A stretch of DNA of 64,000 nt from an uncultured Gammaproteobacteria bacterium (GTDB lineage: Bacteria > Patescibacteriota > Patescibacteriia > Magasanikbacterales > JBBTXJ01), in NCBI GenBank assembly GCA_964610305.1, contig CAZSVL010000001.1, forward strand, positions 108,781-172,780, written 5' to 3'. Position numbers and translations under genes: made by a program. Positions 14,997 through 56,746 of this stretch are shown piece by piece. The notes beneath the pieces are model-generated. The model was not told where the DNA came from. It saw only the letters and a list, made by a program, of their open reading frames with translations, and ran no database searches. Each line of letters starts with the position of its first letter. Positions within the stretch are counted from its first letter, which is position 1.

Positions 14997-15068
14997 TATA
15001 CCACAGATTTTAGTACTGTAACTAGTAATCAGTAACTAGTAACCTGAAATCAGTAACTTGAATATTGT

Positions 15069-16463
15069 ATGATCAAAACCAGATTTGCACCAAGCCCAAC
15101 AGGGCATTTACATATTGGAGGGTTGCGCGCAGCGCTTTATGCTTACATGACGGCCAAACATAGTAATGGCTCTTTTTTGATTAGGATAGAGGATACGGAT
15201 CAGAGTAGAACACAAGAAGGCGCGCAAGAGGAAATTGTTAGAATTCTTGCTACATTGGGTCTTAAATCTGATGAGGAAATACTGCAGCAGTCAGCAAGAT
15301 TAGATATCTACAAGCAACATGCGCAGGAGCTTTTTTCAAATGACAAAGCATACTTTTGTCAATGCAGCCCAGAGAGGCTTTTAGAGCTTAGAGAAGCGAA
15401 AAAAAAAGACGGAGGACGCCTTGGTTACGATAGGCAGTGTGCCGATAAAAAATTAGAGAGCGGCGTGCTTAGATTGCGTGTACCACAAGGCAGACAGATT
15501 GTGGTGGATGATGTAATCAGAGGGAAGGTAAGCTTTAATTCTGAGGATATTGATGACCAAGTATTAATGAAGTCTGACGGATTTCCAACGTACCATTTGG
15601 CCCATGTTGTAGATGATCACGCCAGCGGGATTACGCATGTGATCAGGGGAGAGGAGTGGCTATCTTCTACGCCAAAACACATTCTTATATATGAAGCTCT
15701 TGGTTGGGAATTGCCCACGTATGCTCATCTGCCCTTGATTTTGGGTGAAGGTGGAGGAAAACTCTCTAAACGTCACGGAGCCCGATCAGCAGAAGAGTAT
15801 TTAAATGAAGGCTATCTTCCAGCGGCGTTGATAAATTTTTTGGTACTTTTAGGATGGAATCCTAGAGGAGATCAGGAAGTGTATAGTTTTAAAGAGCTTA
15901 TAGAGTCTTTTGACTTAAAAAAAGTAAATAAAGGCGGAGCTGTTTTTTCAGAGGAAAAATTAGAGTGGATAGGGCAGCAGCACATGCAAAGTGCGGATCC
16001 AAAAGAGCTTGCCGCAATGGCTATGCCGTTTTTAGGAAAGAATCAACAAGTGGCAAAGAAAAGAGGAGGAGAGTGGCTTGAAAAAGTAATCACCATAGAG
16101 CAACAACGTATTTCAAGACTCTCTCAAATAGGGGAGGACACTGATTTTGCTTTTACTGATAGCATTGAGTACGATCCCGCGCTTCTTGTTGGCAAAAAAT
16201 CAGATAAAACCGAAGCAAAAGATAGACTAGAGAAGGTAAAAGATTATTTGAGTGACGTGGATAGTTTTGAAGACAGAGAAGCTCTAGAGGAGGATATGCT
16301 TGGATGGATCAAAAAAGAGGATCTGGGAAATGGACCAACGCTCTGGCCATTGCGCGTAGCGCTCACCGGAAAAGCAAAGTCTCCTAGTCCGTTTGATGCA
16401 TTGTGGCTTCTGGGAAAGGAAGAGGCTCAAGAGAGAATACAAGACGCAATCGCAAGTTTGTAA
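15069..16463 (+). CDS. gltX: glutamate--tRNA ligase
   Basis: RFAPSPTGHLHIGGLRAALYAY (HIGH) and KLSKRHG (KMSKS) class I motifs. Confidence 0.95.
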   Translation: MIKTRFAPSPTGHLHIGGLRAALYAYMTAKHSNGSFLIRIEDTDQSRTQEGAQEEIVRILATLGLKSDEEILQQSARLDIYKQHAQELFSNDKAYFCQCSPERLLELREAKKKDGGRLGYDRQCADKKLESGVLRLRVPQGRQIVVDDVIRGKVSFNSEDIDDQVLMKSDGFPTYHLAHVVDDHASGITHVIRGEEWLSSTPKHILIYEALGWELPTYAHLPLILGEGGGKLSKRHGARSAEEYLNEGYLPAALINFLVLLGWNPRGDQEVYSFKELIESFDLKKVNKGGAVFSEEKLEWIGQQHMQSADPKELAAMAMPFLGKNQQVAKKRGGEWLEKVITIEQQRISRLSQIGEDTDFAFTDSIEYDPALLVGKKSDKTEAKDRLEKVKDYLSDVDSFEDREALEEDMLGWIKKEDLGNGPTLWPLRVALTGKAKSPSPFDALWLLGKEEAQERIQDAIASL

Positions 16464-17104: not shown

Positions 17105-18337
17105 ATGGAAAAAGTCCGCTTGTCATTATTAAAATTGACCGCAGTCCTCCTGGTGGTGGGTTCTTTTGGTTATGTTTCGCCAGCTACTGCGCTGGATTCA
17201 AATACTAAAGATGATATTTTGCGCCTGCAAGATGAGATAAAGGCAAAGAAGAGTGATGTCGCAAAGCTGGAGAAGAAGATATCCACGGCAAAAAGTAGTA
17301 TTTCCAGAAAACGTACGGAAGTGCTCTCGCTCAACAATCAAATTGGAATTATTGATGGAAGGTTAGACAGTGTTGAGCTAGATATTAGATCCACTGGGCT
17401 AGAGATAGAAACGGTGGAGCTAGAGCTTCAAGAAATACAGCTTCAGATAGATTTAAAAAACGCGCAGATTGATCAGCATAAGGCGCTCCTCTCTGAGCTT
17501 ATTAGATCCATGCATAGGGAAGGAGAGCGCGATTACATAGAGATGCTTCTTTCAGAAGAGAGTTTCTCGGAATTTTTCTCATCGCTTCAGTATTTAGAGG
17601 ATATATATTCTGATGTAGGAGCGCAGGCAAAAGCTTTGCGTGGCGCAAAGGAGTTGCTTTCTGAGCAGGAGCAGAGAATAGAGGAGAAGCAGGATTCTCT
17701 TGCAGAGCTTAAAATTGCGCTTCAGGCAAAGGCAGAAGAGCTCTCTGGTCAGCGTGTCTATAAAGAGGAGCTTTTGGATAAAACAAGAAAGAGCGAGCGG
17801 CTCTTTCAGCAGATGCTCTCTGATCTGAGAGTAGAGTATCAGCAGATAGAGAGTGAGATACAATCCATAGAGCGATCCATCAGAAATAGGCTAGAGGACA
17901 GCGATGAGCTTAATGTAGATGGAGACGTCATATTGTCCTGGCCTACCTCTGGCAGGTACATTACTTCTTATTTTCATGATCCGGATTATCCCTACCGGCA
18001 TGTATTTGAGCACAGTGGAATAGACTTGAGGGCTGGTCATGGTACGCCATTGCGTGCTTCTGCTCCTGGTTATGTGGCGCGGGCAAAAAGATGTAGTTCT
18101 TCTTGGTGTTATAGTTACGTAATGATTATTCATGGAGAAGGTATCTCTACGCTTTATGGGCACATGAGCTCTATTGCAATACAAGAGGATCAGTTTGTGG
18201 GCAGGGGAGACATAATTGGGTATACAGGCGGCACACCCGGAACGGTTGGTGCTGGGCCGTTTGTGACAGGGCCTCACCTTCATTTTGAGACAAGATTGAA
18301 TGGTATTCCGGTTAATCCGTTAAATTACTTGCTATAG
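17105..18337 (+). CDS. M23-family peptidase with N-terminal coiled-coil (EnvC/murein-hydrolase-activator-like)
   Basis: C-terminal HSGIDLRAGHGTPLRA...GHMSSI...GPHLHFE M23 zinc motifs; long coiled-coil; ORF-track GTG at 17087 lies inside the -10 element, so ATG at 17105 (MEKVRL) is the likely start, implying a leaderless or very short leader. Confidence 0.85.
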   Translation: MEKVRLSLLKLTAVLLVVGSFGYVSPATALDSNTKDDILRLQDEIKAKKSDVAKLEKKISTAKSSISRKRTEVLSLNNQIGIIDGRLDSVELDIRSTGLEIETVELELQEIQLQIDLKNAQIDQHKALLSELIRSMHREGERDYIEMLLSEESFSEFFSSLQYLEDIYSDVGAQAKALRGAKELLSEQEQRIEEKQDSLAELKIALQAKAEELSGQRVYKEELLDKTRKSERLFQQMLSDLRVEYQQIESEIQSIERSIRNRLEDSDELNVDGDVILSWPTSGRYITSYFHDPDYPYRHVFEHSGIDLRAGHGTPLRASAPGYVARAKRCSSSWCYSYVMIIHGEGISTLYGHMSSIAIQEDQFVGRGDIIGYTGGTPGTVGAGPFVTGPHLHFETRLNGIPVNPLNYLL

Positions 18338-18401
18338 TAAGTAGTAATTCTTAAATAGTGCTTAAAAATGGCTAAATTAAGCTATTTTTTTAGTTTATGA
18401 C

Positions 18402-18430
18402 TTGACAAAATGGGCAAAATGTGCTATAGT
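18402..18430 (+). promoter_or_regulatory. sigma70 promoter TTGACA-17-TATAGT with TGTGC extension
   Basis: ttgaca 18402-18407, 17-nt spacer, tatagt 18425-18430 preceded by tgtgc. Confidence 0.65.
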
Positions 18431-18517
18431 AGTATAGTCCTCAAAATGGGATAGCCGTACCTGGCACCGTTTTGAGGGTGACGTATCTAACAAAACACAC
18501 ACACCTTAGGGGATTCA

Positions 18518-19570
18518 GTGACCACTAACCTTCGTGAAGAGTTTGACGCCCTCACGGGTACCGATGAAATGAGCGTTGAGGGTGCACTGGAGCACCTTCG
18601 CACTCAGGTGCGGGAAGAGGCCTGCGTTTTTGACGCTCCGGCCATGCTAGAGCAGCTTGACATGATCGCTTTGGTGGAGGAGGGGACTATTGTTCCGGCC
18701 GAGCTGGAGCTTGAAGTCTGCGAGCCTTCTTTGGACGAGCTGGTGGAAGCTGCTCTGGACCGAGAGGATCCAGAAGTGGACCGCGAGCTGGTAGAGAGTC
18801 TGCTCGGAGAGGATGATGGCTTTGAGGGCGGAGCGGTCTTCTATGCCCAGGACATGGCAGACGCTGGCTGGGAGCTCTCTGATCTGGATCACCTTCGTGG
18901 TCTGGAGGCGCTCTCTGACTCTCCGGAGCTAGAAGCGCTTGACGTGGACTACTGGGATCGGATGGACGTCTTGGACGCCCAGGAGAGGGCCCGACGCGCC
19001 AAGGCGTGGAAGTCCTTTTCAACCGACCCGGAGCCCCGCTTGCGTAGGCTGACGGTCATTTCCACTACCGTAGCTCGTGAGGAAGAGACGTACGTGGACA
19101 TCACCGTCTCTGACGGCGAGCACGCGGTGGCCACTTCTGAGCATTCGGTCTACATTCATCAGGATGTCCGTGGTGTTGCTGTGGTGAAGGCCACGGCTTG
19201 GGACATCTCTGACGATCAGATCGTTTACATCAGCGGCTGGGATGCCGTCTTGCGGGGAATCGCTCGTACGGGTATCTTCTTTGCGGTGCACATGGAGCAG
19301 ATCATCAGTCGCGCAAAGCCTAGCGCCTCTAGTGACCCTGCGATCGGCAAGATCGTGGTGGCCAAGGTCGTCAAGCACCTGCGCTCCGGCGTTTTGGTGC
19401 GAAACGAGCACGGTCAGAAGGGTCTGATCGGTGTGGAGACGATCAAGGGAGTTGGCTCAGCAGCCAACGCCATGTCGTTCCTTCGCTCCAAGTGTCCTGT
19501 GGGTCGTGAAGTGACCGTAGAGATCGTGGCTCGCCGCGATCAGGGCGATTTCGTCCTGAAGCTCTCCTAG
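18518..19570 (+). CDS. hypothetical acidic protein with C-terminal S1/OB-like domain; GC-anomalous gene
   Basis: 350-aa ORF with GTG start; about 58-60% GC against about 45% in flanking genes; no stop for 350 codons is highly non-random at this GC; D/E/L-rich N-terminal half; C-terminus GKIVVAKVVKHLRSGVLV...GLIGVETIKG...VTVEIVARRDQGDFVLKLS resembles an S1 domain. Confidence 0.6.
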   Translation: MTTNLREEFDALTGTDEMSVEGALEHLRTQVREEACVFDAPAMLEQLDMIALVEEGTIVPAELELEVCEPSLDELVEAALDREDPEVDRELVESLLGEDDGFEGGAVFYAQDMADAGWELSDLDHLRGLEALSDSPELEALDVDYWDRMDVLDAQERARRAKAWKSFSTDPEPRLRRLTVISTTVAREEETYVDITVSDGEHAVATSEHSVYIHQDVRGVAVVKATAWDISDDQIVYISGWDAVLRGIARTGIFFAVHMEQIISRAKPSASSDPAIGKIVVAKVVKHLRSGVLVRNEHGQKGLIGVETIKGVGSAANAMSFLRSKCPVGREVTVEIVARRDQGDFVLKLS

Positions 19571-19592
19571 GTCTTTAGTAACAGTTAGTTAA

Positions 19593-19629
19593 CCCCCCTT
19601 GTGGTCAACATGATCACGAGGGGTTTTTA
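19593..19629 (+). terminator. intrinsic terminator after the GC-rich ORF
   Basis: hairpin ccccttgtg...cacgagggg (19593-19624) followed by TTTTT. Confidence 0.6.
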
Positions 19630-19669: not shown

Positions 19670-19870
19670 CTCACCATGAGGGAGGACATGTGAGGCTACG
19701 CTTAGAATTCTGGCGACACAGACAGGTTTTGCTAAGCCGACAAATTGGCGAGCCTGAGGTAAGGCGTAGGGGAGTTAGGCCAAGGATTGTATATCTGCGG
19801 CGCATGAGTATGAGAAGAATTGGACGTAGGTAAAGTCAAGTCAGGCTAAGTAGGCAAGCCTGACTTTTTT
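19670..19870 (+). ncRNA. candidate small RNA (about 200 nt, promoter-to-terminator, no ORF)
   Basis: bounded by the promoter-like element above and a perfect 8-bp hairpin gtcaggct (19840-19847) / agcctgac (19857-19864) plus T6 (19865-19870); GC-rich; contains only tiny ORFs. Confidence 0.4.
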
Positions 19871-20840
19871 AATCTGCCTTTTTGAGAGGATGAAAGTCTG
19901 TATGTGTCTTTTCTGCAAAGCGGTCAGATGCATGCACGTAACGCGTTGTGGTATCTAGAGATTCGTGGCCTAAAAGCACCTGAATGGCGGCCGGGTTCGC
20001 TCCGGATTCTGCCAAGTACGTAGCAAAACCATGTCTGAGGGTGTGCGCAGAGATGGGTACATTAATACCAAGAAGCTCTCGGTATTTTTTTATTTTTGAC
20101 TGAAGATAGTTAGGCGATATTCTTCGCTTTTTACTGCCATCTTTTGATCCTGAGCCGCGGTACGGAATAAAAACTGCCGGTGCTTCATCATCTCTGAGTT
20201 TTAGATATGCTTGCAGGTGTCTATACGCACGTGGCGTTAAATACACAAATCTCTCTTTTCGGCCTTTGCCTTTTATAAAAATGCGACCAGAGGAGTCAAT
20301 TTGATCTCGGTTAAGGTTCAGCAACTCTGAAATGCGCATGCCAGTGGAGAAGAGTACTTCAAGCATGGCACGGTTACGCTGGGCGAGGAGGGGATTTTTC
20401 TCAAGCTCTGATGGGGACTCAATAAGCGCCACAAGTTCATTGAGCTCACCAACGCGCGCATGTTTCTTATCGGTTTTAACTAATCTAATGGCACCCGCAG
20501 CAAGAGGGTAGGGGAGGTCCATTTCTACCAAATATTTGAGGTAGGCGCGCAGTGAGCTCAAGTGGCGGTTAACAGAGAACGGTGTAAGCTTTTGCTTTGA
20601 TTTTGATTTTGTTGGGGTAACTCTGTCGGTAGAGTAGAGGTAGGCCTTGTATTGCTCAATGACCTTTTTATCAATGCTTTTAAACGCAAGGCCATGCTCT
20701 GTCATAAAGTGTGAAAAGACCAGCAAGTCTCGCTCGTAATTATAAAGCGTTTCTTTGGAATAGTTATTAGTTTGCAGTGACAATAAGAAGTCATCTAAGT
20801 GATGAAGAGATTGGTTACCTGTGGATAACTTTTTGCTCAT
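19869..20840 (-). CDS. xerC: tyrosine recombinase XerC/XerD family
   Basis: C-terminal catalytic region ...HTLRHGFATYLAESGANPAAIQVLLGHESLDTTTRYVH (R..H..R..Y tetrad context); N-terminal core-binding domain. Confidence 0.9.
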   Translation of the reverse strand: MSKKLSTGNQSLHHLDDFLLSLQTNNYSKETLYNYERDLLVFSHFMTEHGLAFKSIDKKVIEQYKAYLYSTDRVTPTKSKSKQKLTPFSVNRHLSSLRAYLKYLVEMDLPYPLAAGAIRLVKTDKKHARVGELNELVALIESPSELEKNPLLAQRNRAMLEVLFSTGMRISELLNLNRDQIDSSGRIFIKGKGRKERFVYLTPRAYRHLQAYLKLRDDEAPAVFIPYRGSGSKDGSKKRRISPNYLQSKIKKYRELLGINVPISAHTLRHGFATYLAESGANPAAIQVLLGHESLDTTTRYVHASDRFAEKTHTDFHPLKKAD

Positions 20841-24622: not shown

Positions 24623-26107
24623 CTATTTTTTTGGTTTTAGAACGGGAAATGGTATTACATCTCTGATGGTTTGTGCGTTAGTAAATAGCATGGCCATGCG
24701 GTCTATTCCTATGGCCGCGCCCGTGGTTGGCGGCATGCCGTGCTTCATAGCCTCTACAAAGTCGTGGTCGGGCTCATGGATGTCCTCTACCGTGCTTCCG
24801 GCTTTTGCCTTTTTGCTCTCTTCTATGAATCGCTCTTCTAGTTCTAGCGGATCATTAAGTTCCGAATAATTGTTTCCGTGCTCAGATCCCAATATGAAAT
24901 GCTCAAATCTTTCTACAAATTCTGGTTTGCCGGGAACTCGTTTTGCTAGAGGTGATGTTTCTACGGGATATTCGTAAACAATAGTTGGCTGAATGAGCTT
25001 CTCCTCTACTTTCTCTTCAAATAGTAATGCGATAGAAAGCCCAACATTGTGCGCCGTTTTAATTTTATCTGCCGGAATCTTTGTTTTTTTCAGCGCCGCA
25101 TGAGCTTCTTTTACACTTTTCCATGAGCTCACATCTATACCAGTGTGCTCAGAGATTGCATCTACCATTGTTATACGTTTCCATGGTCTTGCAACGCTTA
25201 TGGTTTGGTCATCCCAAACAATGTCCGTGCCGCCAAGTAGTTTTTGAGCGCAGAATTCATAACATTGCTCAATTAAATCCATGTTGTAGGTGTAGTCATG
25301 ATACGCGGCCATAGTCTCAAGCATGGTAAATTCTGGATTATGCGTTTTATCCACACCTTCATTGCGAAACATCCTTGCAATCTCATACACCTTTTCTAGT
25401 CCACCGACTACAAATCTTTTTAAGTAGAGCTCTGTTGAGATGCGCAGATACATGTCTATGCCTAGAGCGTTATGTTTGGTAGAAAATGGACGCGCAAATC
25501 CGCCACCGTATAATGGCTGCAAGATGGGCGTTTCAACTTCAATATATCCTTGGTCATCTAAAAATTCTCTGACGGTGTTGATCAGCTTGCTTTTCATTTT
25601 AAAGCGTTCCAAAACTTCCGGATTGCTCAGCATATCCAGATAGCGCTTTCTTAGTTGCGTTTGCCTATCTTTTAGTCCTGCACGCTTTTCTGCCAGCGGC
25701 ATGATGGTTTTGGTGAGCAATTCAAGAGATGACACCATAAGGGATTTTTCTCCCTTTTTGGTTGTCATGGGCGACCCATGTCCCACAATAATGTCTCCAC
25801 GGTCTATGTTGTTTTTAAGCAGATCGTACTGCTCCTCCCCTACCTCATTTTTCTTTATAAAAAATTGTACGATACCGGTTTCATCTTGCACATGGGCAAA
25901 CGTTGTGCCACCTTGTCTGCGGATGCTCATCACGCGTCCGGCCACCGTTACAGAGCTGTCCCCTATCATCTCAAAGTTATCCAAAAAGTCGCCGATCGCT
26001 CTGCGCTTTTTATTCCAAGACGGAAACGGATCTATGCCCGCGTCCCTCAGTGATTGAATTTTACCAATCCTCTCCTCTTGTTCTGATTGATGCGCTTTTT
26101 TTGTCAT
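24623..26107 (-). CDS. lysS: lysine--tRNA ligase (class II)
   Basis: OB-fold anticodon-binding N-terminus and class II motifs (FRNEG, GGGFARPF..., GIGIDR). Confidence 0.95.
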   Translation of the reverse strand: MTKKAHQSEQEERIGKIQSLRDAGIDPFPSWNKKRRAIGDFLDNFEMIGDSSVTVAGRVMSIRRQGGTTFAHVQDETGIVQFFIKKNEVGEEQYDLLKNNIDRGDIIVGHGSPMTTKKGEKSLMVSSLELLTKTIMPLAEKRAGLKDRQTQLRKRYLDMLSNPEVLERFKMKSKLINTVREFLDDQGYIEVETPILQPLYGGGFARPFSTKHNALGIDMYLRISTELYLKRFVVGGLEKVYEIARMFRNEGVDKTHNPEFTMLETMAAYHDYTYNMDLIEQCYEFCAQKLLGGTDIVWDDQTISVARPWKRITMVDAISEHTGIDVSSWKSVKEAHAALKKTKIPADKIKTAHNVGLSIALLFEEKVEEKLIQPTIVYEYPVETSPLAKRVPGKPEFVERFEHFILGSEHGNNYSELNDPLELEERFIEESKKAKAGSTVEDIHEPDHDFVEAMKHGMPPTTGAAIGIDRMAMLFTNAQTIRDVIPFPVLKPKK

Positions 26108-26211
26108 GCAAGCAGTATAGTTTTTTAGCTGAATTTAGTCAATAAGAAAACCGACCGTGTGTGGCTGGTTGGTGCTTTTTTGCATCTTTGGCGCGAAGTT
26201 GTTTGAATAAT

Positions 26212-26379
26212 GCTGTAGGCTGTAGGCTTTATGCTGTATGCCCTTTTAGCGTCATGCTGAATTTAATTCAGCATCCAGTTAGGAAACTAAGACTTACTCA
26301 ATTTTTACCCTAGATTCTGAATCAAGTTCAGGATGACATGTCGATACCTTACAGTATAAAGCCTACAGCCTACAGCATC
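26212..26379. repeat. composite palindromic element: 29-31-nt outer inverted repeats flanking an 87-nt GTCATGCTGAA...TTCAGGATGAC hairpin unit (MITE/REP-like)
   Basis: left arm gctgtaggctgtaggctttatgctgtatgcc (26212-26242) is the reverse complement of acagtataaagcctacagcctacagcatc (26351-26379); inner unit 26251-26337 with internal palindromes gctgaatttaattcagc and ctgaatcaagttcag; a related copy lies at 40169-40340. Confidence 0.7.
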
Positions 26380-26417
26380 TTGCATATAGCCAAACACTCA
26401 TGGCGCGGTACGGCCGG

Positions 26418-26882
26418 TCAAGATATAGATTTTATCGTATATGACTTTTTTCCGCCTGGCGTGTCCACTTCAACCTCATCTCCCATATTGTGATCTAGGA
26501 ATGCTGCTCCAAGAGGTGATTCGTTGGAAATTTTGCCAGAAGCTGGATCAGCCTCTGAGGCTCCCACTATAGTAAGCACGCGCTCGTTCCCATCTGACTC
26601 TACCGTGATGGTGCATCCTATGTGAACGGTATCACTTCCACTGCTTTGGTCTATTACTTTAACTTTATGCAGTTTGTTTTCCAGTTCTGCTAGTTTGCTT
26701 TGTAGCCAGACCATTTCATCCTTTGCTTCTTGGTAATCTGCGTTTTCGGAGAGGTCTCCCAGTTGCTTTGCATCGTCAATTCTGACGGCCATGGCGGGAA
26801 TGGTTACCTCTTTGAGCTCTTTGTACTCTGCCTCCAGCTTTTGCAGCCCGGCCGGAGTTACATATGTTGGTTGTTCATCCAT
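26418..26882 (-). CDS. greA: transcription elongation factor GreA
   Basis: N-terminal coiled-coil with conserved acidic tip residues, C-terminal FKBP-like domain. Confidence 0.9.
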   Translation of the reverse strand: MDEQPTYVTPAGLQKLEAEYKELKEVTIPAMAVRIDDAKQLGDLSENADYQEAKDEMVWLQSKLAELENKLHKVKVIDQSSGSDTVHIGCTITVESDGNERVLTIVGASEADPASGKISNESPLGAAFLDHNMGDEVEVDTPGGKKSYTIKSIS

Positions 26883-26918: not shown

Positions 26919-28829
26919 CTATTGTGTTGACCACCACCGCAGAAATTCTCTGGCAATGGGCAGCGCTGTTTTTGTTCCTCCTTCCCCCTCTTCTACTACA
27001 ACAGCTATTACTAGCTCTGGATCATCGTAAGGTGCAAAACCAGCAAACCAGCTATGAGGTGCTTTTTTGGATGACCATTGTGCTGTTCCGGTTTTTCCGC
27101 CGCTGGAAACCGGCAGCGTACTCATAGAAACGCAACTGCCGTATTCCACACATGCTTGCATCCCTTGTTTAACCGTTTGAAGGTGGGTTTTTTCTATGGG
27201 AAGCGTGGTAATTATCTGAGGATCAATAGGCTGAACCTCTGCGCTGCTTGGGTCAACAACTCTTATGGCTAAGTGTGGTCGATAGACTGTGCCACCGTTT
27301 AGCAGCGCTGCAGTAGCTGTGCCCATTTGCAGCGGTGTCACTAGTACATCTCCTTGACCAATAGACAAGTTATAGGTGTCTCCTATGTACCAACGCTCCC
27401 CTTTTGCCTCTTGTTTCCACTCTGGCGAGGGAATGTGACCACTTGCTTCTGCGGGTATATCAATACCAAGTTTTTGAGTGAGGCCAAAGTGCACAAGGTA
27501 CTGTTTAATACGATCCACACCCAAACCTTCTATCTGTTCATATCCACCACCAATTATGTAAAAAAAGGTGTTCACAGATTCTGCTATGGCTTTTATAACG
27601 CCGGTGATTCCATGGCCCCCTGCCTTCCAGTCAGGAAAAAACCATCTGCTCACTTGCAACCCTCCTTCACTTTTGAATCTTGAGTTCTGGCTTATAATGT
27701 TCTCTTGCAAAGCGGCGGCTGCAAGAAGCGGTTTAATGGTGGAGCCTGATGGGTAAGTTCCCGCCACCGCTCGGTTAAAGAGAGGGTTGTCTGGATCATC
27801 GGCATATTGTCTGTATGTGGCAGTGTCTATTCCGCCGGTAAAATCATTATTATTGTAGGTGGGGATGCTTACCATGGCGTTAATAACACCCGAGTTTGGA
27901 TTTAAAATAATAGCGGCTGCGCGCGTGACTCCTTTTGCTTTTAAAACGTCTTTTGTTATTCTTTCTAGATTTTGCTGCCACGATTTATCAATACCAAGAA
28001 CTACGTGCCTGCCTGGCGTGGGAGGATCTTGTGCCAATGTGAGTTTCTTGCGACCCGCGGCGTCTACTTCTACGCGTTGCTTGCCATAATGACCACGCAA
28101 GAAATCTTCATAGTTTTTTTCTATCCCTGTTTTCCCTAGCGTATCGGTGGGAAGATAGCCAAGGTCATATTTATCTTTGAGCTCTTCTGGAGAGAGTTTT
28201 CCAACATATCCTAGAATGTGCGAGAGGCTGCTGGGCGTGCTACTTACCGCCGGGTCAAGTGGGCTGTAGAGCCTTTGTGTTGTGTTTTCCACTCTGATGC
28301 CGGGCAAATCTGCACTTTCAATTATTAGATTAAGAGCTTTTTGATAATCAATACCGGTTGCAACGTGGAGCGCCTCATATGAGTAGTTACGGTATTCTTC
28401 CAAGATGTCTATAATATTCTCTGTTGGTATCCCTGCTAGTCCGGCCGCCTTCTGAATGACCTCGTCTCTTGTTTCGGGTTTTTTTGGCAGATCCTGTGGA
28501 AGTATAGTAAGAGAAAAACTAGTGGTGTTGCCTACAAGCGGCTGGTTATTGCGATCATATATAATGCCGCGGTTTGAAGGAATAGGAATGATGCGTACCC
28601 GATTATGTTCTGCCGCCTGCAAATGTTTTGCGCCCATAAATCCTTGAATATAAATGAGCCTGGTAACAACTGCCACGGCAAAAATGCCAAACAAAATTGA
28701 TATCATTTTTACATTTCCAGATAACTGCGTGTTGCTTACAAATCTTTTTCTGTTGTGACTGCTAGAGAGAGCTCCGCTGTACGTATGTTCAACCCACTGC
28801 TTTTTTTTGTTGACGGCGTCGCGCTTCAT
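26919..28829 (-). CDS. mrdA: penicillin-binding protein 2 (elongasome transpeptidase)
   Basis: SGSTIKP, SNN-region and KTGTAQ transpeptidase motifs with one N-terminal TM; the ORF-track N-terminal extension to 29003 overlaps mreD; ATG at 28827-28829 (MKRDAVNKKKQ) gives the usual 4-nt overlap with the mreD stop. Confidence 0.85.
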   Translation of the reverse strand: MKRDAVNKKKQWVEHTYSGALSSSHNRKRFVSNTQLSGNVKMISILFGIFAVAVVTRLIYIQGFMGAKHLQAAEHNRVRIIPIPSNRGIIYDRNNQPLVGNTTSFSLTILPQDLPKKPETRDEVIQKAAGLAGIPTENIIDILEEYRNYSYEALHVATGIDYQKALNLIIESADLPGIRVENTTQRLYSPLDPAVSSTPSSLSHILGYVGKLSPEELKDKYDLGYLPTDTLGKTGIEKNYEDFLRGHYGKQRVEVDAAGRKKLTLAQDPPTPGRHVVLGIDKSWQQNLERITKDVLKAKGVTRAAAIILNPNSGVINAMVSIPTYNNNDFTGGIDTATYRQYADDPDNPLFNRAVAGTYPSGSTIKPLLAAAALQENIISQNSRFKSEGGLQVSRWFFPDWKAGGHGITGVIKAIAESVNTFFYIIGGGYEQIEGLGVDRIKQYLVHFGLTQKLGIDIPAEASGHIPSPEWKQEAKGERWYIGDTYNLSIGQGDVLVTPLQMGTATAALLNGGTVYRPHLAIRVVDPSSAEVQPIDPQIITTLPIEKTHLQTVKQGMQACVEYGSCVSMSTLPVSSGGKTGTAQWSSKKAPHSWFAGFAPYDDPELVIAVVVEEGEGGTKTALPIAREFLRWWSTQ

Positions 28830-29356
28830 ATATCGCTTAAGTCTAGACTGAGTCGGGCGTGACGCGTTTTTCTGCTCCACAGGGCATAGAGGAAAACAAT
28901 AAGCGCTCCCGCAATGGATGTTGCAACAATTTCTGTAATAGAATGACGAAAAACTACCCGAGCGCTCGGCAGGGCGGTGGTTGTCCATGCGGATGCGATC
29001 CACAGCATGAGCGCAAAACTTGCTCTGAAGAGCGCGGTCATAGAAGCAATTAAGAGTACACCGCCAGATAATTGAAGCGTGCTGAGCAGCGTGGTTGCTA
29101 TAATCATTCCACCACTTACACTGATAACCATAGAGCTTAGCACCAGGCCAAAGGGGGTGATGGCGTACAGTTCCATAAGCACCCCCATAAGCATGGTGGT
29201 AAAAAGAGCAAGTCGGTAGCGGGTGGATATAACCATAAGCGCAATAAGAAGAAGACTTACGTTGATGGCATTTAGCGGATAAGGTGCTGTGCTGCTAAAT
29301 CCCATATGCAGCGCGCCTACACCCAGAAACGTGAATAAATATAAAAAAGCGGTCAT
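28826..29356 (-). CDS. mreD: rod shape-determining protein MreD
   Basis: 176-aa polytopic membrane protein between mreC and PBP2 with overlapping stops and starts. Confidence 0.7.
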   Translation of the reverse strand: MTAFLYLFTFLGVGALHMGFSSTAPYPLNAINVSLLLIALMVISTRYRLALFTTMLMGVLMELYAITPFGLVLSSMVISVSGGMIIATTLLSTLQLSGGVLLIASMTALFRASFALMLWIASAWTTTALPSARVVFRHSITEIVATSIAGALIVFLYALWSRKTRHARLSLDLSDI

Positions 29357-36260: not shown

Positions 36261-37367
36261 TCAAGAAACAAAGCGTCTTTGGACTCTGTTGCCAAAGCTG
36301 CAGATGACGTCATACGGATGCGTGCCTTTTTTACGCGCCCATTGTGCTACACGCAGCTCATTGTCTAGTAGCACTACTTCATCACCTACCTCAGCCTGTG
36401 GTACATCATCAAGCAGAACCGTTGTGTAATCCATGCTAATGCGTCCTATCATGGGGCATTTTATTCCGTGCACTGTAGCCTGCCCGTTGTTGGTTAGCGC
36501 AAAGGGTATTCCATCTGCATAACCGGCGGCTATGGTGCCTACGGTGCATGGTTTTTGCAGTGTGTACATTTTTCCGTAGCCAATACTGCTTCCCGCGGGC
36601 AGTTTTCTTACGGCAACAAGTTTTGATTTTAGTGTCATGGCCGGAAGCAGATTGTAGGCTCGGTTTCCTTCTATGTCAAAAATGCCGTATAGGTTTATTC
36701 CTGTACGGACTCCGGTAAATGGGTGACTATAGCTCTCCGGGATATTATTTATAGCGTCAGAGCTGCCTATGTGGATATTTTTAAAAGTTATTCCCCTACT
36801 CCTAAGCTTTGACAGAAGATTTGTAAAAGTTTCTATCTGAGAGATGGTAAATTCTCTATCTCCGTAAGCGTGGGGAAAATGAGAATATATGCCGGCTATA
36901 TTTAATTTTGGAAGCGAGCAGATTTCTTCAATTACCGATACAATATGGCCACCCGTCATTCCTAACCTTCCCATGCCAGTGTCTATAAGTAAGTGACAGG
37001 TAGCAGTTTTGCCTTGTTTGCGAGCCTCTAGACTCAAGCGGTATGCTGTGCGGCGATCCCCAATAGGCGCTACAATATCATGTTGTATTACTGCAGGGAT
37101 TTCCTCTTCTAAAAGTGTGCCTACAATATGGGGCTTTAGACCAGCTTTTTTTATCCACAAGGCTTCCCGAAGATCCGCAAGTCCCACCGATGTTGCTCCT
37201 GCATGAGCAAGTGTCTTGGCTATCATTTGGGGCTCACCAAGGCCGTAGGCATTAGCTTTAAGAACTGGCATTACCTCTAGTGGACTTACTTTTTCTTTGA
37301 TTGTCCTAAAATTGTGAGCTATGGCGCTCAGTTTTATTTCTAGCCATACGCGCGCATAATTTTGCAT
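36261..37367 (-). CDS. alr: alanine racemase
   Basis: PLP-lysine motif VLKANAYGLG, GRISMDY and the second catalytic-Tyr region. Confidence 0.9.
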   Translation of the reverse strand: MQNYARVWLEIKLSAIAHNFRTIKEKVSPLEVMPVLKANAYGLGEPQMIAKTLAHAGATSVGLADLREALWIKKAGLKPHIVGTLLEEEIPAVIQHDIVAPIGDRRTAYRLSLEARKQGKTATCHLLIDTGMGRLGMTGGHIVSVIEEICSLPKLNIAGIYSHFPHAYGDREFTISQIETFTNLLSKLRSRGITFKNIHIGSSDAINNIPESYSHPFTGVRTGINLYGIFDIEGNRAYNLLPAMTLKSKLVAVRKLPAGSSIGYGKMYTLQKPCTVGTIAAGYADGIPFALTNNGQATVHGIKCPMIGRISMDYTTVLLDDVPQAEVGDEVVLLDNELRVAQWARKKGTHPYDVICSFGNRVQRRFVS

Positions 37368-37392
37368 AGATTGGATGGTATCACTTTCTACA

Positions 37393-37792
37393 AATAAAAA
37401 AAATGCCCCCGCTGCGTTACAAGAAGGCAGCGAGGGCGGTGTAGGTGCGCGTTTACGCCTTTGTTGGGGATAAGGCTCCCCTTGGCCGTAGTGATTGGGT
37501 GGATCAGGCGCGCTGTGAGCGCATTATCCTCCGCTTTCGCGCTATGAGGAACCCTTTGGGGTGATCAGCCCAGACTAATACCGCAAGGCGGTGTTTTCTC
37601 ATTAGTCCTCAATACCTTTTGATCAGTCTCTCCTTGCCTCTCGGCTTTCCCTATTATATGGGTGCTGGCGTCCCAGCTGTGGTCTATCCCCTGCGTTCGT
37701 TTTTTTTGGCGTTAGGCCTGCAAGTGGAGCTCCCGGGGATAAAAGGAAGCATGCCGCCTGCCTCGCGAAAAGAGCAGCCATGGCTCATTCCG
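37393..37792 (-). ncRNA. candidate structured RNA, unit B (about 400 nt, GC-rich), own promoter and terminator, immediately upstream of alr
   Basis: minus-strand promoter 37800-37828, intrinsic terminator hairpin gcccccgctgc/gcagcgagggc with T-run (plus coordinates 37393-37437), no long ORF, about 57% GC; shares a conserved core with unit A, with compensatory changes. Confidence 0.5.
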
Positions 37793-37799
37793 TTAACAC

Positions 37800-37828
37800 A
37801 GTATAGCACAAAATACGCATTTTGTCAA
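37800..37828 (-). promoter_or_regulatory. minus-strand sigma70 promoter TTGACA-17-TATACT with TGTGC extension
   Basis: the plus-strand motifs tgtcaa (37823-37828) and agtata (37800-37805), 17 nt apart, give TTGACA-N17-TATACT on the minus strand. Confidence 0.6.
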
Positions 37829-37884
37829 GGGGTAGATTGACAAAATACGCTTATTTTAGCCAATTTTAGGGTCTTATTTTGAGT

Positions 37885-38164
37885 AAAAAAAGGACCCCGC
37901 GAGCATCTACCGTTAAGTAGTGCCACGGGGTCGAGGAAGCTATGAGCAGGTTGGGAGCGCCAGGCGCGTTATTCCTCCACAGCATTTTCAGCCGTATTAG
38001 AGGAGTCCCTTTAGGGGGATCAGCCCAGAGCACAGCCACAAAGTGGTGTTTTTCAGTGCTCTCCTTACTCACGATTACGGTCTCTCCTTGTTGCCCCTAA
38101 GAATTTATCGGGGTCGTGGATGGTGGTCCTGCCAGGGCAGACGTTGAATGGTATTAAAGAATCG
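37885..38164 (-). ncRNA. candidate structured RNA, unit A (about 280 nt), paralogue of unit B
   Basis: minus-strand promoter 38171-38199; terminator hairpin gaccccgtg...cgcggggtc plus T-run (plus coordinates 37885-37932); conserved blocks ...GAAAAACACC-hairpin-CUGGGCUGAUC.CCC.AAAGGG...GGAGGAUAAYGCGC-loop-GCGC shared with unit B. Confidence 0.5.
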
Positions 38165-38170
38165 GATTAA

Positions 38171-38199
38171 AGTATAGCAGAAAAAACGTATTTTGTCAA
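38171..38199 (-). promoter_or_regulatory. minus-strand sigma70 promoter TTGACA-17-TATACT with TGC extension
   Basis: plus-strand agtata 38171-38176 and tgtcaa 38194-38199, spacer 17. Confidence 0.6.
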
Positions 38200-38226
38200 G
38201 TGGTCTTTGACACGTGTTCTTTTTTT

Positions 38227-38299
38227 GTCATCCTGAACCGAAGGTGAAGGATCTCCTGCCGCGCGATGGTATGAGATCCTTCACTGCGTTCAGGATGAC
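38227..38299. repeat. MITE/REP-like hairpin element GTCATCCTGAAC...GTTCAGGATGAC
   Basis: 12-nt perfect terminal inverted repeats (38227-38238 and 38288-38299) enclosing a second inverted repeat gtgaaggatctc/gagatccttcac; same termini as the elements at 26251-26337 and 40212-40296. Confidence 0.65.
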
Positions 38300-38351
38300 G
38301 CTTATGGGTTTTGTCAATTAAAAAACCCAGATGGTTAGTCCGGGAGAATTT

Positions 38352-39113
38352 TTACAGGGGCTCAATCTTGCCGTTGAGCCTGATAATTCCCATATCAATA
38401 ACGGGAATATTTTGATTTTCTGCTTGCTCCACAAAGGCGCGTGCATCGCGCTGGTGGATCTGCAGCTCCTGCTGAGGATCTGCATGAAGCCCCGGCTCGT
38501 AAGCATCACAGTCTTCATGTTGAAACAGTCTTACACCCAAGCCGCGCTCCGCAGCCCAAGCAAAGAACTGCCGACCAGCCTCTGTTCCAACAAGCGCCTT
38601 TGCAGCGCCCGGGACAACAAAGCTGTATGAGTCTGGGTTACGGTACTCAGTTCTGATCATTTCAAAAGGCGTGCGGTAGTCGCAGCAGCATACCGTCACG
38701 GTATTCCAATCATCAGGTGGGCTGCTCTCTGGGTTTCCTTCTCTTACAAAAAGGTTATGAGACAAGCTGGTACGGCGATCATCCTTTCTAAGCAAATCAA
38801 TAATGACAGATGCTGCTTCAATACATGCCAGGCCATCATCGTCAATGAGCGTAACGTGCGTGGGATTATGCAAGGTAAGAAGTGTGGTAATAAAACCAAG
38901 CATTTCTTTGGTGAGCGCATCATTTTCCGCACCGTTGATCACCGCAATAGGTCGCGGGATCCGCAGCACATCGGCCTTTCCTTCTTCTAGATACCTTTCA
39001 ATCACCCGGTTTGCCTGCGGATGAGATGGAGCAATGATTAAACGAGCAATGGACGTTTCTGTCACGCTTCCCTCCTCTGGTGAGCGGCGCGGCGTAGTAT
39101 ACGCATTTGTCAT
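38352..39113 (-). CDS. hypothetical protein (weak LmbE/PIG-L-like resemblance)
   Basis: 253-aa ORF; SHPQAN and HNPTH segments faintly recall the HPDDE/HxDH motifs of LmbE-like deacetylases but are not conserved; CCCDYR and HEDCD cysteine-containing segments. Confidence 0.45.
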   Translation of the reverse strand: MTNAYTTPRRSPEEGSVTETSIARLIIAPSHPQANRVIERYLEEGKADVLRIPRPIAVINGAENDALTKEMLGFITTLLTLHNPTHVTLIDDDGLACIEAASVIIDLLRKDDRRTSLSHNLFVREGNPESSPPDDWNTVTVCCCDYRTPFEMIRTEYRNPDSYSFVVPGAAKALVGTEAGRQFFAWAAERGLGVRLFQHEDCDAYEPGLHADPQQELQIHQRDARAFVEQAENQNIPVIDMGIIRLNGKIEPL

Positions 39114-39174
39114 CCATTTGTCAAGCTATCTTTACTAATCTTTTTGAGATTGAAGCGGCGTTTCCTTTTTAGAC

Positions 39175-39203
39175 TTGACAAAAAGGCTTTTTTGTGCTAT
39201 AGT
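39175..39203 (+). promoter_or_regulatory. sigma70 promoter TTGACA-17-TATAGT with TGTGC extension
   Basis: ttgaca 39175-39180, spacer 17, tatagt 39198-39203; SD aaaggagg 39211-39218; ATG 39225. Confidence 0.65.
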
Positions 39204-39224
39204 TTTCTTAAAAGGAGGCACATA

Positions 39225-39677: not shown

Positions 39678-39695
39678 AAGGAATAATATTCAAAT

Positions 39696-39754: not shown

Positions 39755-40173
39755 CTATATTTTTTTGCGATTCTGATTCTGGACATGGCGCGTTCTAGTT
39801 GTGCTTGGAGTGCAGCGAATTCTACATCGTCCTCAAACTTCTTTTCTTTTATGTATTCTTCTGCTCGTTTGCGGGCTTCTTCTGCTCGCTCAAGATCAAT
39901 ATCTTCTGCTCGTTCTGCAGCATCTGCTAAAATCTGAACTTTACTCCCTTGCTGCACCTCTAAAAAGCCGCCGGTTACTATCATGGGAAATTCTGCGCCG
40001 TCCTTTTTTACGCGCATTTCTCCTGGTTGCAAGACAGATACCAATGGAATGTGGTTTTGAAGAATGGAAATTTCTCCTGATTGCGTCATCAGGGTGATCT
40101 CTTCTACTTCTGAGTCGTAAACAACGCGCTCAGGGGTTACCATTTTTAGTTGAATCATATGTTTTGTAGGCAT
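39748..40173 (-). CDS. atpC: F1Fo ATP synthase epsilon subunit
   Basis: beta-sandwich N-terminal domain (VTPERVVYDSEV...ISILQNHIPL) plus C-terminal helical hairpin. Confidence 0.9.
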   Translation of the reverse strand: MPTKHMIQLKMVTPERVVYDSEVEEITLMTQSGEISILQNHIPLVSVLQPGEMRVKKDGAEFPMIVTGGFLEVQQGSKVQILADAAERAEDIDLERAEEARKRAEEYIKEKKFEDDVEFAALQAQLERAMSRIRIAKKYRK

Positions 40174-40340
40174 TAGGCATCAGGCCTCAGGCATTAGTGA
40201 GGTGTCCACTTGTCATACTGAACTTGATTCAGAAACTATGAAGAAACAAAGTACGTCTTGCTGTTATAGTGGATCCTGAATCAAGTTCAGGATGACGCTA
40301 ACTGGGTACTAGTGCCTACTGCCTGATGCCTAATGCCTAT
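40169..40340. repeat. composite palindromic element filling the atpD-atpC intergenic region (outer inverted repeats plus 85-nt GTCATACTGAAC...GTTCAGGATGAC unit)
   Basis: outer arms ggcattaggcatcaggcctcaggcattag (40169-40197) and ctagtgcctactgcctgatgcctaatgcc (about 40309-40338); inner unit 40212-40296 shares the 21-nt ctgaatcaagttcaggatgac with 26317-26337. Confidence 0.7.
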
Positions 40341-40343
40341 AAC

Positions 40344-41805
<1,462 letters not shown>

Positions 41806-41813
41806 GGTGTTAT

Positions 41814-43406: not shown

Positions 43407-43425
43407 CGAGTGCGGTTTTTTTATT

Positions 43426-43496
43426 GTCATCGCGAGGAGTGAAGCAACGTGGCGATCCCGTCGGGATTGCTTCGCAGTTTCACTGCTCGCAATGAC
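43426..43496. repeat. 71-nt hairpin repeat, copy 2 (GTCATCGCGAGGAGTGAAGC...CACTGCTCGCAATGAC)
   Basis: see 41735-41805; lies between the small ORFs and the atpA stop. Confidence 0.7.
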
Positions 43497-43504
43497 GTCT
43501 TGTT

Positions 43505-45986: not shown

Positions 45987-46118
45987 ATAAGTAACAAGTA
46001 GCAAGTCAATAAGTAACAAGTAGCAAGTAACAAGTAGCAAGTAACAAGTAGCAAGTAACAAACTTGTTAATACGCACACTGCGAAATTGCTACTTGTTCC
46101 TTGTTACTTGCTACTTTC
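45987..46118. repeat. tandem 14-nt repeats (GTAACAAGTAGCAA, about 5 copies) followed by their inverted copy, forming a long imperfect hairpin in the atpE-atpF spacer
   Basis: gtaacaagtagcaa repeated 45991-46060; inverted ttgctacttgttccttgttacttgctac at 46088-46115. Confidence 0.7.
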
Positions 46119-46206
46119 TAAGGACAGCCGCAAAATCCAGCTCGTTAACAAGTGTCAGCGGACCCCTTGCACAAACTGGATACTGCGGCCATCCGCAGCT
46201 TTATCT

Positions 46207-46425: not shown

Positions 46426-46437
46426 ATATTCTTATTA

Positions 46438-46510
46438 AGTAACAAGTAGCAAGGAACAAGTAACAATTTTTCGCGCTTTTTTTGTTACTTGCTGCTTGTT
46501 ACTTGCTGCT
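46438..46510. repeat. second copy of the GTAACAAGTAGCAA-based hairpin (atpB-atpE spacer)
   Basis: gtaacaagtagcaaggaacaagtaac ... gttacttgctgcttgttacttgctgc inverted arms around a T-rich loop. Confidence 0.65.
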
Positions 46511-46514
46511 TAAC

Positions 46515-54975: not shown

Positions 54976-55020
54976 CTTGAGATCCCGGATATTTTGCTAC
55001 GCAAAATTCCGGGATGACAG
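54976..55020. repeat. partial GAGATCCCGGAT...TTCCGGGATGACAG hairpin element
   Basis: shares both arms with the elements at 56486-56615. Confidence 0.6.
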
Positions 55021-56164: not shown

Positions 56165-56746
56165 TTATAGTCCTAAAAAAAGATCGTCTCCCAATTCTAA
56201 ATCTTCAAATTCCCCTTTTGTGTAATCCCCTTCTGGGAGTTTGCGCGCCGCTTCTACTTTTGAAGCTGCCTCCGGGGGGATGACCTCTGAGATTATGTTT
56301 CCGTTAACGGCTATATTGTTTGCTACTTCACAATAGCCCAGGCAGCCTCTGTATTGCAGAGAGACTTCCTCACTTTCTTGCCCTTCTTTGATTCCAAAGT
56401 GATTTTCTAGCTCTTGCATAATATAGCGCGCATGCTTGGGGCCGCAGGTTTTGGAATCGCAGACTTCAATTCGATCTACCTTTTTGTCATCCCGGACTAG
56501 ATCCGGGATCTCAAGTGATGCGTCTACCGACGATTTTTTACTTGAGATCCCGGATAATTCACTATGTGAATTTCCGGGATGACAGGTGGAGGGTTGTGAA
56601 TTTCCGGGATGACAGATTGGTTTGTTTTGTCCGCATGTGCAGTTTTCGCATTTTGACGGGATCCCTCGGCTCTCCTGCGGATCGCTCGGGGTGACGGGTG
56701 GGTTACCCATAGTATTTTTCGCTATAAAATCTAATGAGTTGCTCAA
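56165..56746 (-). CDS. thioredoxin-like [2Fe-2S] ferredoxin (NuoE-like); N-terminal region of uncertain reality
   Basis: C-terminal CDSKTCG ... GCLGYCE (C-x4-C ... C-x3-C); the N-terminal about 90 codons translate the CCGGGATGACAG repeat elements and overlap the upstream NifU gene by 44 nt, so the true start is probably internal. Confidence 0.65.
   Translation of the reverse strand: MSNSLDFIAKNTMGNPPVTPSDPQESRGIPSKCENCTCGQNKPICHPGNSQPSTCHPGNSHSELSGISSKKSSVDASLEIPDLVRDDKKVDRIEVCDSKTCGPKHARYIMQELENHFGIKEGQESEEVSLQYRGCLGYCEVANNIAVNGNIISEVIPPEAASKVEAARKLPEGDYTKGEFEDLELGDDLFLGL
56486..56615. repeat. GTCATCCCGGAC...TTCCGGGATGACAG hairpin element with tandemly duplicated right end, embedded in the 5' part of the 2Fe-2S ferredoxin ORF
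   Basis: termini gtcatcccgga (56486-56496) and tccgggatgac (56573-56583); inner inverted repeat ccgggatctcaagt/acttgagatcccgg; second copy of gtgaatttccgggatgacag at 56596-56615. Confidence 0.65.

Follow-up and report, generated by a model that had tools for sequence, protein, structure and literature searches.

Intergenic palindromes in a Magasanikbacterales genome resemble CGTC-tagged REP dimers, two of them enclosed in heptamer-repeat arms

We analysed short palindromic elements in the intergenic spacers of a 64-kb stretch of DNA (contig CAZSVL010000001.1 of assembly GCA_964610305.1, positions 108,781 to 172,780) from an uncultured bacterium that GTDB places in the Magasanikbacterales of the Patescibacteriota. 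We call this whole stretch the window. The best-matching named homologues of its AtpD all belong to Candidatus Magasanikbacteria or Patescibacteria. We judge it about 75% probable that the elements are head-to-head dimers of CGTC-tagged repetitive extragenic palindromes (REPs), that is, non-autonomous repeat DNA similar to REPs and to the REP doublets known as REPINs, with two of the dimers lying inside palindromes of tandem heptamers. The elements are present in several copies scattered over the DNA in either orientation, always in spacers directly 3' of open reading frames (ORFs).

Hairpin units, dimers and heptamer arms

With at most one mismatch allowed, the motif GTCATNCTGAAC had six matches in the window (26251+, 26337-, 38227+, 38299-, 40212+ and 40296-), which form three inverted pairs; 0.91 matches were expected, and none of 100 shuffled sequences got to six. 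An earlier note on this DNA had singled out these three intergenic sites as elements of 74-87 nt with near-identical inverted termini. They are present as it described, and the 21-mer CTGAATCAAGTTCAGGATGAC that it reported as common to the first two sites is real. Each 'terminal repeat' proved to be a whole small hairpin, and each element is therefore a head-to-head REP dimer, in which two hairpin units are inverted with their tags outside. The basic unit is a 28-nt hairpin made up of a (C/T)GTC tag, an 8-bp stem beginning with AT, a 5-nt loop and a 3-nt tail (CCA or CTA). The two dimers built of such units, which we call type A, have spacers of 33 and 31 nt. In all six dimers of the window, the tags are on the outside. 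A generic scan of the window for GTCAT followed by an 8-bp stem gave no discrimination, with shuffled sequences averaging 2.3 matches.

The first composite element (26210..26378) lies in the greA-lysS spacer and consists, in order, of an arm, a linker, a CGTC unit, a 33-nt spacer, an inverted TGTC unit, a second linker and a second arm. Its left outer arm (26210..26242) holds 4.6 copies of tandem heptamers of the ATGCTGT / GCTGTAG type, and its right outer arm (26350..26378) holds complementary heptamers of sequence AGCCTAC. The CGTC unit (26250..26277, + strand) has the stem halves ATGCTGAA and TTCAGCAT around the loop TTTAA, all eight of its pairs being formed, and ends in the tail CCA (26275-26277). 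The TGTC unit (26311..26338, - strand), with ATCCTGAA and TTCAGAAT around CTTGA, forms seven of eight pairs and ends in CTA; together the two units make up a head-to-head dimer with tags outside. The second composite element (40164..40342) fills the atpD-atpC spacer and belongs to the same family, in the opposite orientation. It holds a degenerate unit at 40211..40238 (+ strand; TGTC, ATACTGAA, CTTGA, TTCAGAAA, CTA) and an intact one at 40270..40297 (- strand; CGTC, ATCCTGAA, CTTGA, TTCAGGAT), which has 8/8 pairs and the tail CCA at 40270-40272. The third site (38226..38300) is a head-to-head dimer that we call type B. It reads GTC-ATCCT-GA-AC-loop-GT-GA-AGGAT-CTC, its tags are CGTC at one end and TGTC at the other, its stem is broken by a GA/GA internal loop, and it has no outer arms.

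The outer inverted repeats of the first composite (26210-26238 and 26350-26378) are 29 nt long and 97% complementary; those of the second (40164-40198 and 40308-40342) are 35 nt long and 86% complementary. Tandem Repeats Finder resolved both pairs into tandem heptamers, ATGCTGT/AGCCTAC at greA-lysS and TAGGCAT/CTAATGC at atpD-atpC. The earlier note was thus right that the dimers are nested in inverted repeats of about this length, which it had put at 29-31 nt, but it took these arms to be specific to each site, whereas the copies are homologous over their whole length and not at their termini only.

Across the window, including the further sites described in the last section, CGTC tags lie at 26250, 40297, 38300, 41806 and 43497, a GGTC tag at 41734, and TGTC tags at 26338, 40211, 38226, 43425, 55019, 56485 and 56584. 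The tails are CCA, CTA or CTC. Fully paired 8/8 stems are found in ATGCTGAA/TTCAGCAT, ATCCTGAA/TTCAGGAT and ATCCCGGA/TCCGGGAT, and the 5-nt loops of the type-A units and of the unit at 56485 are TTTAA, CTTGA and CTAGA.

The composite family and its turnover between relatives

The two composites aligned end to end over about 190 nt (window 26200-26390, + strand, against 40155-40350, - strand) at 81% identity, and the alignment runs through the arms, the linkers and the two units and covers parts of the inner spacer. They are thus copies of one element of about 170-180 nt in opposite orientations relative to transcription. The related contig L134, which is syntenic with the window and has a 84% identical GreA, carries two more composites (17566-17745 and 19432-19595), and a fifth, partial composite with different heptamers (AGGGTGT) occupies the atpD-atpC spacer of relative L126, whose AtpD is 95% identical. 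Judged by their sequences, the composites appear to be a repeat family of about 170-180 nt specific to this Magasanikbacteria lineage.

Alignment of four composites gave a mean identity of 72%. In their consensus fold, ten pairs of the outer arms change on both sides yet stay paired, and variation in the inner REP stems appears only as pair breaks. The inner REPs of the first L134 copy have decayed, and its arms are still 93% complementary. In the outer arms, as in the stems of units from other genomes (see below), pairing has thus been kept through compensatory changes.

Comparison with relatives revealed that the elements have been gained or lost between related genomes. The two composite sites of L134 correspond to short empty intervals in the window (19832-19885 and 18338-18364), and the greA-lysS composite of the window is absent from L134. 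In relative L005 (AtpD 87% identical), the atp spacers measure just 1-10 nt, and L002, L003, L127 and L128 have other hairpin elements in some of theirs. The atpG-atpD spacer of L126 contains a bare heptamer hairpin, compared with a dimer of the sister type GTCATTGCGAGC in the window. Nearly all atp spacers of the window are occupied, and occupancy turns over between relatives whose proteins are 84-95% identical. When 40164-40342 was excised in silico, the atpD-atpC spacer shrank to 6 nt, which is also its length in L005, with no evident target duplication. A comparison of filled with empty sites, including those of L134, likewise gave no clear target duplication, the diverged spacers not aligning at base level; the check for such duplications that the earlier note had called for therefore reaches only as far as these spacers can be compared.

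The greA-lysS spacers of L134 (10466-10916) and L136 (2044-2504) hold a self-contained cassette with a promoter (TTGACAAAAGGCCTTTTTTGTGCTATACT), an ORF of 105-106 aa, which had no Pfam match, and a terminator. In the window (26108-26417), the composite stands in the place of this cassette, of which a terminator remnant (26150-26173) is left over, together with the lysS promoter.

Relation to known repeats and weighing of explanations

The elements fit the definition of the CGTC-tagged REP superfamily as worded in the survey by Di Nocera et al. (2013; PMC3733652). According to that text, these REPs have a terminal CGTC, often TGTC, with CCTC allowed, stems of 8-9 bp that nearly always begin with AT, loops of 4-5 nt and short tails fitting CCA; in the same way, the type-A units of the window have an unpaired CGTC or TGTC tag, an 8-bp stem with AT first, a 5-nt loop and a CCA tail. 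Head-to-head dimers with tags outside and spacers of 20-100 bp are said there to predominate, heterodimers to be common in families CGTC-2 and CGTC-3, and the REPs to sit near 3' ends between unidirectional or convergent ORFs, without associated transposase genes. The window dimers, too, are head-to-head, often heterodimers, intergenic, close to stop codons and without a transposase. The same source places all CGTC-1 dimers of Halothiobacillus neapolitanus within 41-bp palindromes, which the nesting of the window dimers in longer palindromes at two sites resembles. By its description there (8-bp stem, 5-nt loop), as opposed to a consensus sequence, CGTC-2 is the family to which the type-A units would correspond. 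The survey also treats CGTC-1 as the same family as Neisseria dRS3 and Rickettsia RPE-6, and CGTC-4 as the same as RPE-4, and it reports atypical loops in some families and intragenic REPs in replication and repair genes. The supplements of PMC3733652 contained no strings matching the window units.

Compared with the REPs of that survey, the window elements differ in several respects. Their host belongs to the Patescibacteria, or candidate phyla radiation (CPR), whereas the phyla named in that text are Proteobacteria, Chlorobi, Bacteroidetes, Spirochaetes and Thermotogae, with no CPR lineage among them. The enclosing palindrome consists of tandem heptamers that differ between copies, each window dimer combines a CGTC unit with a unit tagged TGTC or GGTC, and in the type-B and GTCATTGCGAGC variants the stem is interrupted or the loop long. 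If the assignment holds, it extends the reach of the superfamily to the Patescibacteria, whose small genomes are usually thought to be repeat-poor, and it documents a composite form, a REP dimer within a heptamer-repeat palindrome whose arms change sequence yet stay complementary. It would also remove a false lead, as the hairpins would be neither a new regulatory RNA nor a new transposon class but CGTC REPs of the kind described in 2013.

Other known systems share some of these features. REPs in Escherichia coli affect mRNA 3' stability. Like GTAG-tagged REPs and REPINs and the bacterial interspersed mosaic elements (BIMEs) of E. coli, the window elements are short tagged hairpins in inverted pairs, each pair able to fold up as a single long hairpin, and they are likewise extragenic and highly repeated, with single-strand mobilisation without target duplication proposed. 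Unlike GTAG REPs, they carry CGTC or TGTC as their tag, and GTAG (also TTAG) is found only within the arm heptamers; unlike REPINs mobilised by REP-associated tyrosine transposases (RAYTs), they came with no RAYT gene in the window or the sampled loci. Cyanobacteria reportedly have intergenic tandem heptamer repeats, termed short tandemly repeated repetitive (STRR) sequences, in which very small palindromic mobile repeats are nested. The arms studied here would resemble these as tandem heptanucleotide arrays in intergenic DNA associated with tiny palindromic mobile repeats, and would differ in phylum and in the heptamers themselves. Our literature search for REPINs or palindromic repeats in CPR bacteria found nothing relevant, and one for the raw strings GTTCAGGATGAC and GTCATCCTGA returned unrelated primer sequences alone.

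We scanned GTDB species genomes with GTCATNCTGAAC N{35,65} GTTCAGGATGAC and obtained at least 120 matching stretches, for 80 of which taxonomy was listed. Among these 80 were about 32 from Sphingomonadales, 15 from Bacteroidota, 9 from Gammaproteobacteria, 5 from Patescibacteria and 4 from Clostridia, besides single matches from Nitrospirae, Calditrichaeota, SAR324, Treponemataceae, Armatimonadota and others. The Patescibacteria listed include Magasanikbacteria GW2011_GWC2_37_14, a Moraniibacteriota and a Saccharibacteria. Thus, with further copies in the window, in L134 and in L126, and with the termini in many phyla, the elements are not restricted to the three sites; such a restriction, without copies in relatives, is what the earlier note had said would refute its reading. 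In 199 type-A units from the 120 loci listed, the base before GTC was C in 66% and T in 29%, and stem position 3 was C-G in 127, G-C in 55, T-A in 5 and G-T in 8, with 3 non-pairs, indicating that the hairpin is kept by compensatory change, and the tag and AT by sequence. The loops of these units were CTTGT, CTCGT and CTTGA, and the tail was most often CCA. In other genomes, 131 dimers had a median length of 79 nt, and 112 of them lay outside long open frames. A metagenome scan with TAGCGTCAT N{50,75} TGAATCARGTT gave 42 loci. Most of these matched by chance within coding DNA, and the dozen or so true hybrid CGTC dimers all lacked heptamer arms.

Several of the loci recovered showed arrangements of their own. 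CGTC REP dimers form regular tandem arrays in Sphingomonas echinoides (L029:62-639, four copies with a period of 163) and in a Clostridiales metagenome-assembled genome (MAG; L019:5479-5816, three copies with a period of 125). A reading as CRISPR or TIGR arrays was rejected: the window has no regular array, and the 'spacers' between the L029 and L019 dimers are conserved, not variable. Five IMG/VR contigs (L129-L133) carry a GTCATNCTGAAC...GTTCAGGATGAC dimer; these contigs may be prophages or flanking host DNA, or might be vehicles that take the dimer from host to host. In a Moraniibacteriota MAG (L039), a REP dimer (3030-3090) and a CATGAAG/CTTCATG palindrome (3992-4086) apparently lie inside a UvrD/PcrA-like helicase frame, and heptamer arms (AAAGTAG / CTTCCTA) surround an intrinsic terminator at 4234-4349. 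Inverted heptamer arms also flank an ORF of about 130 aa in Magasanikbacteria GW2011_GWC2_37_14 (L054:7074-7546), which by eye resembles the four-helix-bundle type of '23S rRNA intervening sequence protein', and they occur at L048:3194-3362 and L025:3840-4045. The arms in these last three loci indicate that heptamer palindromes are not confined to this lineage. A Saprospiraceae MAG has the heptamers GTTATCA/TGATAAC, and arrays in a Bacteroidaceae MAG adjoin a CGTC REP dimer.

On the reading that we favour, the elements would be non-autonomous, REPIN-like selfish DNA entering permissive spacers 3' of genes. They would spread in the form of single-stranded hairpins, aided by an enzyme that acts in trans and is not encoded nearby, and would insert without visible target duplication, while the heptamer arms would grow and drift by slippage, with pairing restored within the palindrome. 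Co-transcribed copies, such as that between atpD and atpC, would form RNA hairpins of about -90 kcal/mol. Likely side effects would be a block to 3' exonucleases or sites for double-strand RNases, the elements not being designed regulators or terminators.

Several observations weigh against this reading. The assignment to CGTC-2 draws on the text criteria of PMC3733652, and the type-B (38226-38300) and GTCATTGCGAGC units, with interrupted stems or 18-nt loops, fall outside the strict 4-5-nt definition, although their stems also begin with AT. Some cross-phylum matches sit on short MAG contigs and may be mis-binned. The greA-lysS composite replaces a small-ORF cassette instead of being a plain insertion, the spacers are too diverged to set insertion boundaries or exclude short target duplications, and arm sequences vary between copies, which is unusual for transposase binding sites. 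Finally, no mobilising enzyme was identified in the 64 kb of genome visible, and for this reason we infer mobility from the presence and absence of copies and not from direct observation; any effects on RNA are likewise inferred.

We consider it unlikely that the elements are locus-specific regulatory RNA hairpins, that is, terminators, attenuators or processing sites tuning expression of greA/lysS and of the atp subunits. Such a role would suit the position of every site just 3' of an ORF, the hairpins in almost all atp spacers, with bare heptamer ones on both sides of atpE, and the covariation of the outer arms, and the predicted folds are extremely stable: composite RNAs reach -89.6 kcal/mol for the first element (z -9.8, mRNA-sense strand) and -90.3 kcal/mol for the second (z -10.4), and dimers -39 to -49 kcal/mol. 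However, of seven elements the sense strand gave the better fold at one and the antisense strand at five, with one tie, which argues against a structure selected at the RNA level. The hairpins are not followed by a U-tract on the sense strand, where the sequence is A-rich or runs straight into the next start codon, and a terminator scan of the minus strand found none at the element sites. The elements are therefore not intrinsic terminators, and the suggestion in the earlier note that they can influence termination finds no support. Lying between a terminator-like site (38344-38326) and the next promoter-like site (38199-38171), the 38226-38300 dimer may hardly be transcribed. The same units also occur at unrelated loci and in many phyla, the atp spacers of close relatives either measure 1-10 nt or contain different elements, and the two composites are oppositely oriented relative to transcription. 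Rfam gave no matches for the whole window at the gathering threshold, and at E<=10 it gave only sub-threshold generic hairpins in 38100-46600 (where they were miRNA-precursor-like) and 37340-38260. A search of the window for tRNA and tmRNA was negative.

Still less probable are classical cut-and-paste miniature inverted-repeat transposable elements (MITEs), deletion derivatives of an insertion sequence (IS) with a DDE transposase that would have GTCATCCTGAAC or the heptamer arms as terminal repeats. MITEs would be expected to be small, to have inverted ends, to exist in many copies and to show insertion polymorphism, and the 29-35-nt terminal inverted arms of the composites would suit them too; yet each 'terminus' is a complete tagged hairpin that also occurs singly (54979-55019) and in tandem (L029 and L019), the arm sequence differs between copies, no target-site duplication is visible between filled and empty sites, as far as spacers too diverged for base-level boundaries can tell, and no IS with GTCATCCTGAAC or arm-type ends was found in the window or in 125 loci. 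The comparison supports REP/BIME-type elements over MITEs, as judged from sequence, because the termini are themselves tagged hairpins that stand alone or in tandem arrays too, with no target duplication in view; of the two labels offered by the earlier note, REP/BIME-type thus stood, in the form of CGTC REP head-to-head dimers, and MITE-like fitted less well. Very improbable, in our judgement, is a purely local origin, in which replication slippage and fold-back repair at heptamer microsatellites formed the palindromes without transposition and the resemblance between sites is convergent. The arms are indeed tandem heptamers drifting in copy number and sequence, bare heptamer hairpins without REPs exist, and heptamer repeats are reported to be over-represented in bacteria (PMC4692102). 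But the 72% identity among four composites extends over their linkers, the two REP units and portions of the inner spacer, which local slippage cannot create, and the REP unit is the same in distant phyla. Slippage applies to the arms only and, as a full explanation, is refuted by the end-to-end homology.

As the earlier note had stated, the window encodes no transposase. A Pfam scan of its 49 ORFs gave no match to transposase families, including Y1_Tnp, and the sole recombinase gene, of Xer type (19869-20840), has a syntenic counterpart in L134. The cognate IS200- or RAYT-type enzyme that the note had proposed looking for did not turn up: tblastn with RAYT and IS200 TnpA queries not drawn from a database detected no homologues in the window or the 125 loci. 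It is a doubtful but conceivable extension that a universally conserved enzyme of the host, and not the transposase of a mobile element, propagates or maintains CGTC units. Its ground is that the CGTC unit hardly differs between Sphingomonadales, Bacteroidota, Clostridia, Gammaproteobacteria and several CPR lineages, and that neither the 2013 survey nor our analysis found a dedicated transposase for it. Replication, repair or Xer-type recombination machinery would then act on single-stranded hairpins, and the heptamer-arm composites of Magasanikbacteria would be a distinct vehicle whose palindrome is regenerated at each copying. In that case, the enzyme would best be sought in a genome of about 1 Mb whose gene set is minimal. 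That not even a minimal genome has a transposase alongside its CGTC REPs sharpens the question of what mobilises them.

Further sites in the window and their genomic setting

Beyond the three sites first listed, no fewer than five additional related sites are present in the window, along with two bare heptamer hairpins; many of them lie in the atp cluster, and all had gone unmentioned in the earlier note. A sister-family palindromic dimer, GTCATTGCGAGC...GCAATCCC, with CGTC and GGTC tags lies in the atpG-atpD spacer (41734..41806), 8 nt past the atpG stop. A second GTCATTGCGAGC dimer (43425..43497), 90% identical to the first, lies 8 nt past the atpA stop between convergent genes. A lone REP unit (54979..55019, - strand), whose stem is of the ATCCCGGA type and whose loop is enlarged, separates a ferredoxin-like gene from one of the TP_methylase family. 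Downstream of nifU, a group of the same type (56485..56614) comprises a unit at 56485-56512 (+ strand; TGTC-ATCCCGGA-CTAGA-TCCGGGAT-CTC), an inverted one at 56544-56584 (- strand) and a truncated one at 56595-56614 (- strand). Loops of about 18 nt that form an extra hairpin are present at 41734-41806, 43425-43497, 54979-55019 and 56544-56584. The bare heptamer palindromes, which contain no REP, are located between atpE (c subunit) and atpF (45989..46120; ten AAGTAAC/AAGTAGC heptamers opposite TTGTTAC/TTGCTAC) and, with the same AAGTAAC/AAGTAGC type, between atpB (a subunit) and atpE (46435..46513). A lone heptamer array, GTAACTA/GTAATCA (15018-15058, 5.7 copies), just upstream of gltX (15069-16463), has no inverted partner nearby.

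All 10 of 10 sites are intergenic, including the eight CGTC-type REP sites in the 64 kb, and at the REP-bearing ones the nearest element edge lies 1-89 nt after a stop codon. The genes flanking REP-bearing sites are co-directional except at 43425-43497, where they converge, and those around the three original sites are all on the minus strand: lysS (24623-26107), greA (26418-26882), a gene for a PBP2-type transpeptidase (26919-29003), alr (36261-37367), atpC (39748-40173 as called), atpD (40344-41726) and atpG (41814-42716). Comparison with relatives makes the ATG at 40158 (MIQLKMVTPER) the probable true start of atpC. The atpD-atpC composite begins 1 nt past the atpD stop and ends 5 nt short of this probable start, so the earlier statement that it occupies essentially the whole spacer is borne out.

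An independent Logan assembly (L001, run SRR8146441) was 100% identical to window 38233-40299, which confirms the window sequence, and both its ends fall within the motif CGTCATCCTGAAC, the behaviour expected of a repeat. In practical terms, such repeats break short-read assemblies, as here, and create spurious ORF extensions. An example of ORF calls inflated by REPs is the ORF at 56165-56746 (193 aa), which matches a 2Fe-2S thioredoxin-like family at residues 91-162 only; the frame of its N-terminal part crosses the REP group at 56485-56614, and the true start of the gene is therefore probably downstream of these repeats.

Between atpA and atpG, which are adjacent in relatives L003, L005 and L128, the window has two small ORFs on the opposite strand (window 42717-43504; called at 42732-43046 and 43134-43406). 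Their probable starts are near 42815 and 43185, after the Shine-Dalgarno-like sequences AAGGAGGAG and AAAGGAGAAG, and they have promoter-like sites of their own at 42760 and 43126 (+ strand) and a terminator-like hairpin at 43052-43075. The products look like membrane proteins and had no Pfam match. At 37390-38175 (- strand) are two tandem paralogous units with 68% identity overall, near-consensus promoters at 38199-38171 and 37828-37800, and a hairpin and T-run at the end of each. Their shared core is CAAGGAGAGAC..AAAACACC..TCTGGGCTGATC.CCC.AAAGGG..CGCGCCTG. The pair had no Rfam match, and the units could be structured RNAs, or else short coding frames of about 80 aa and 33 aa with KH..AVL.WAD.PKG in common. 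Finally, a near-identical promoter module, TTGACAAAA(n8-9)TGTGCTATA(C/G)T, recurs in front of unrelated genes, also in relatives. In the window it is found at 18372-18436, 39167-39203, 55414-55478, 57350-57414, 37800-37833 and 38171-38204, often preceded by similar upstream sequence, and it looks like a dispersed promoter cassette.

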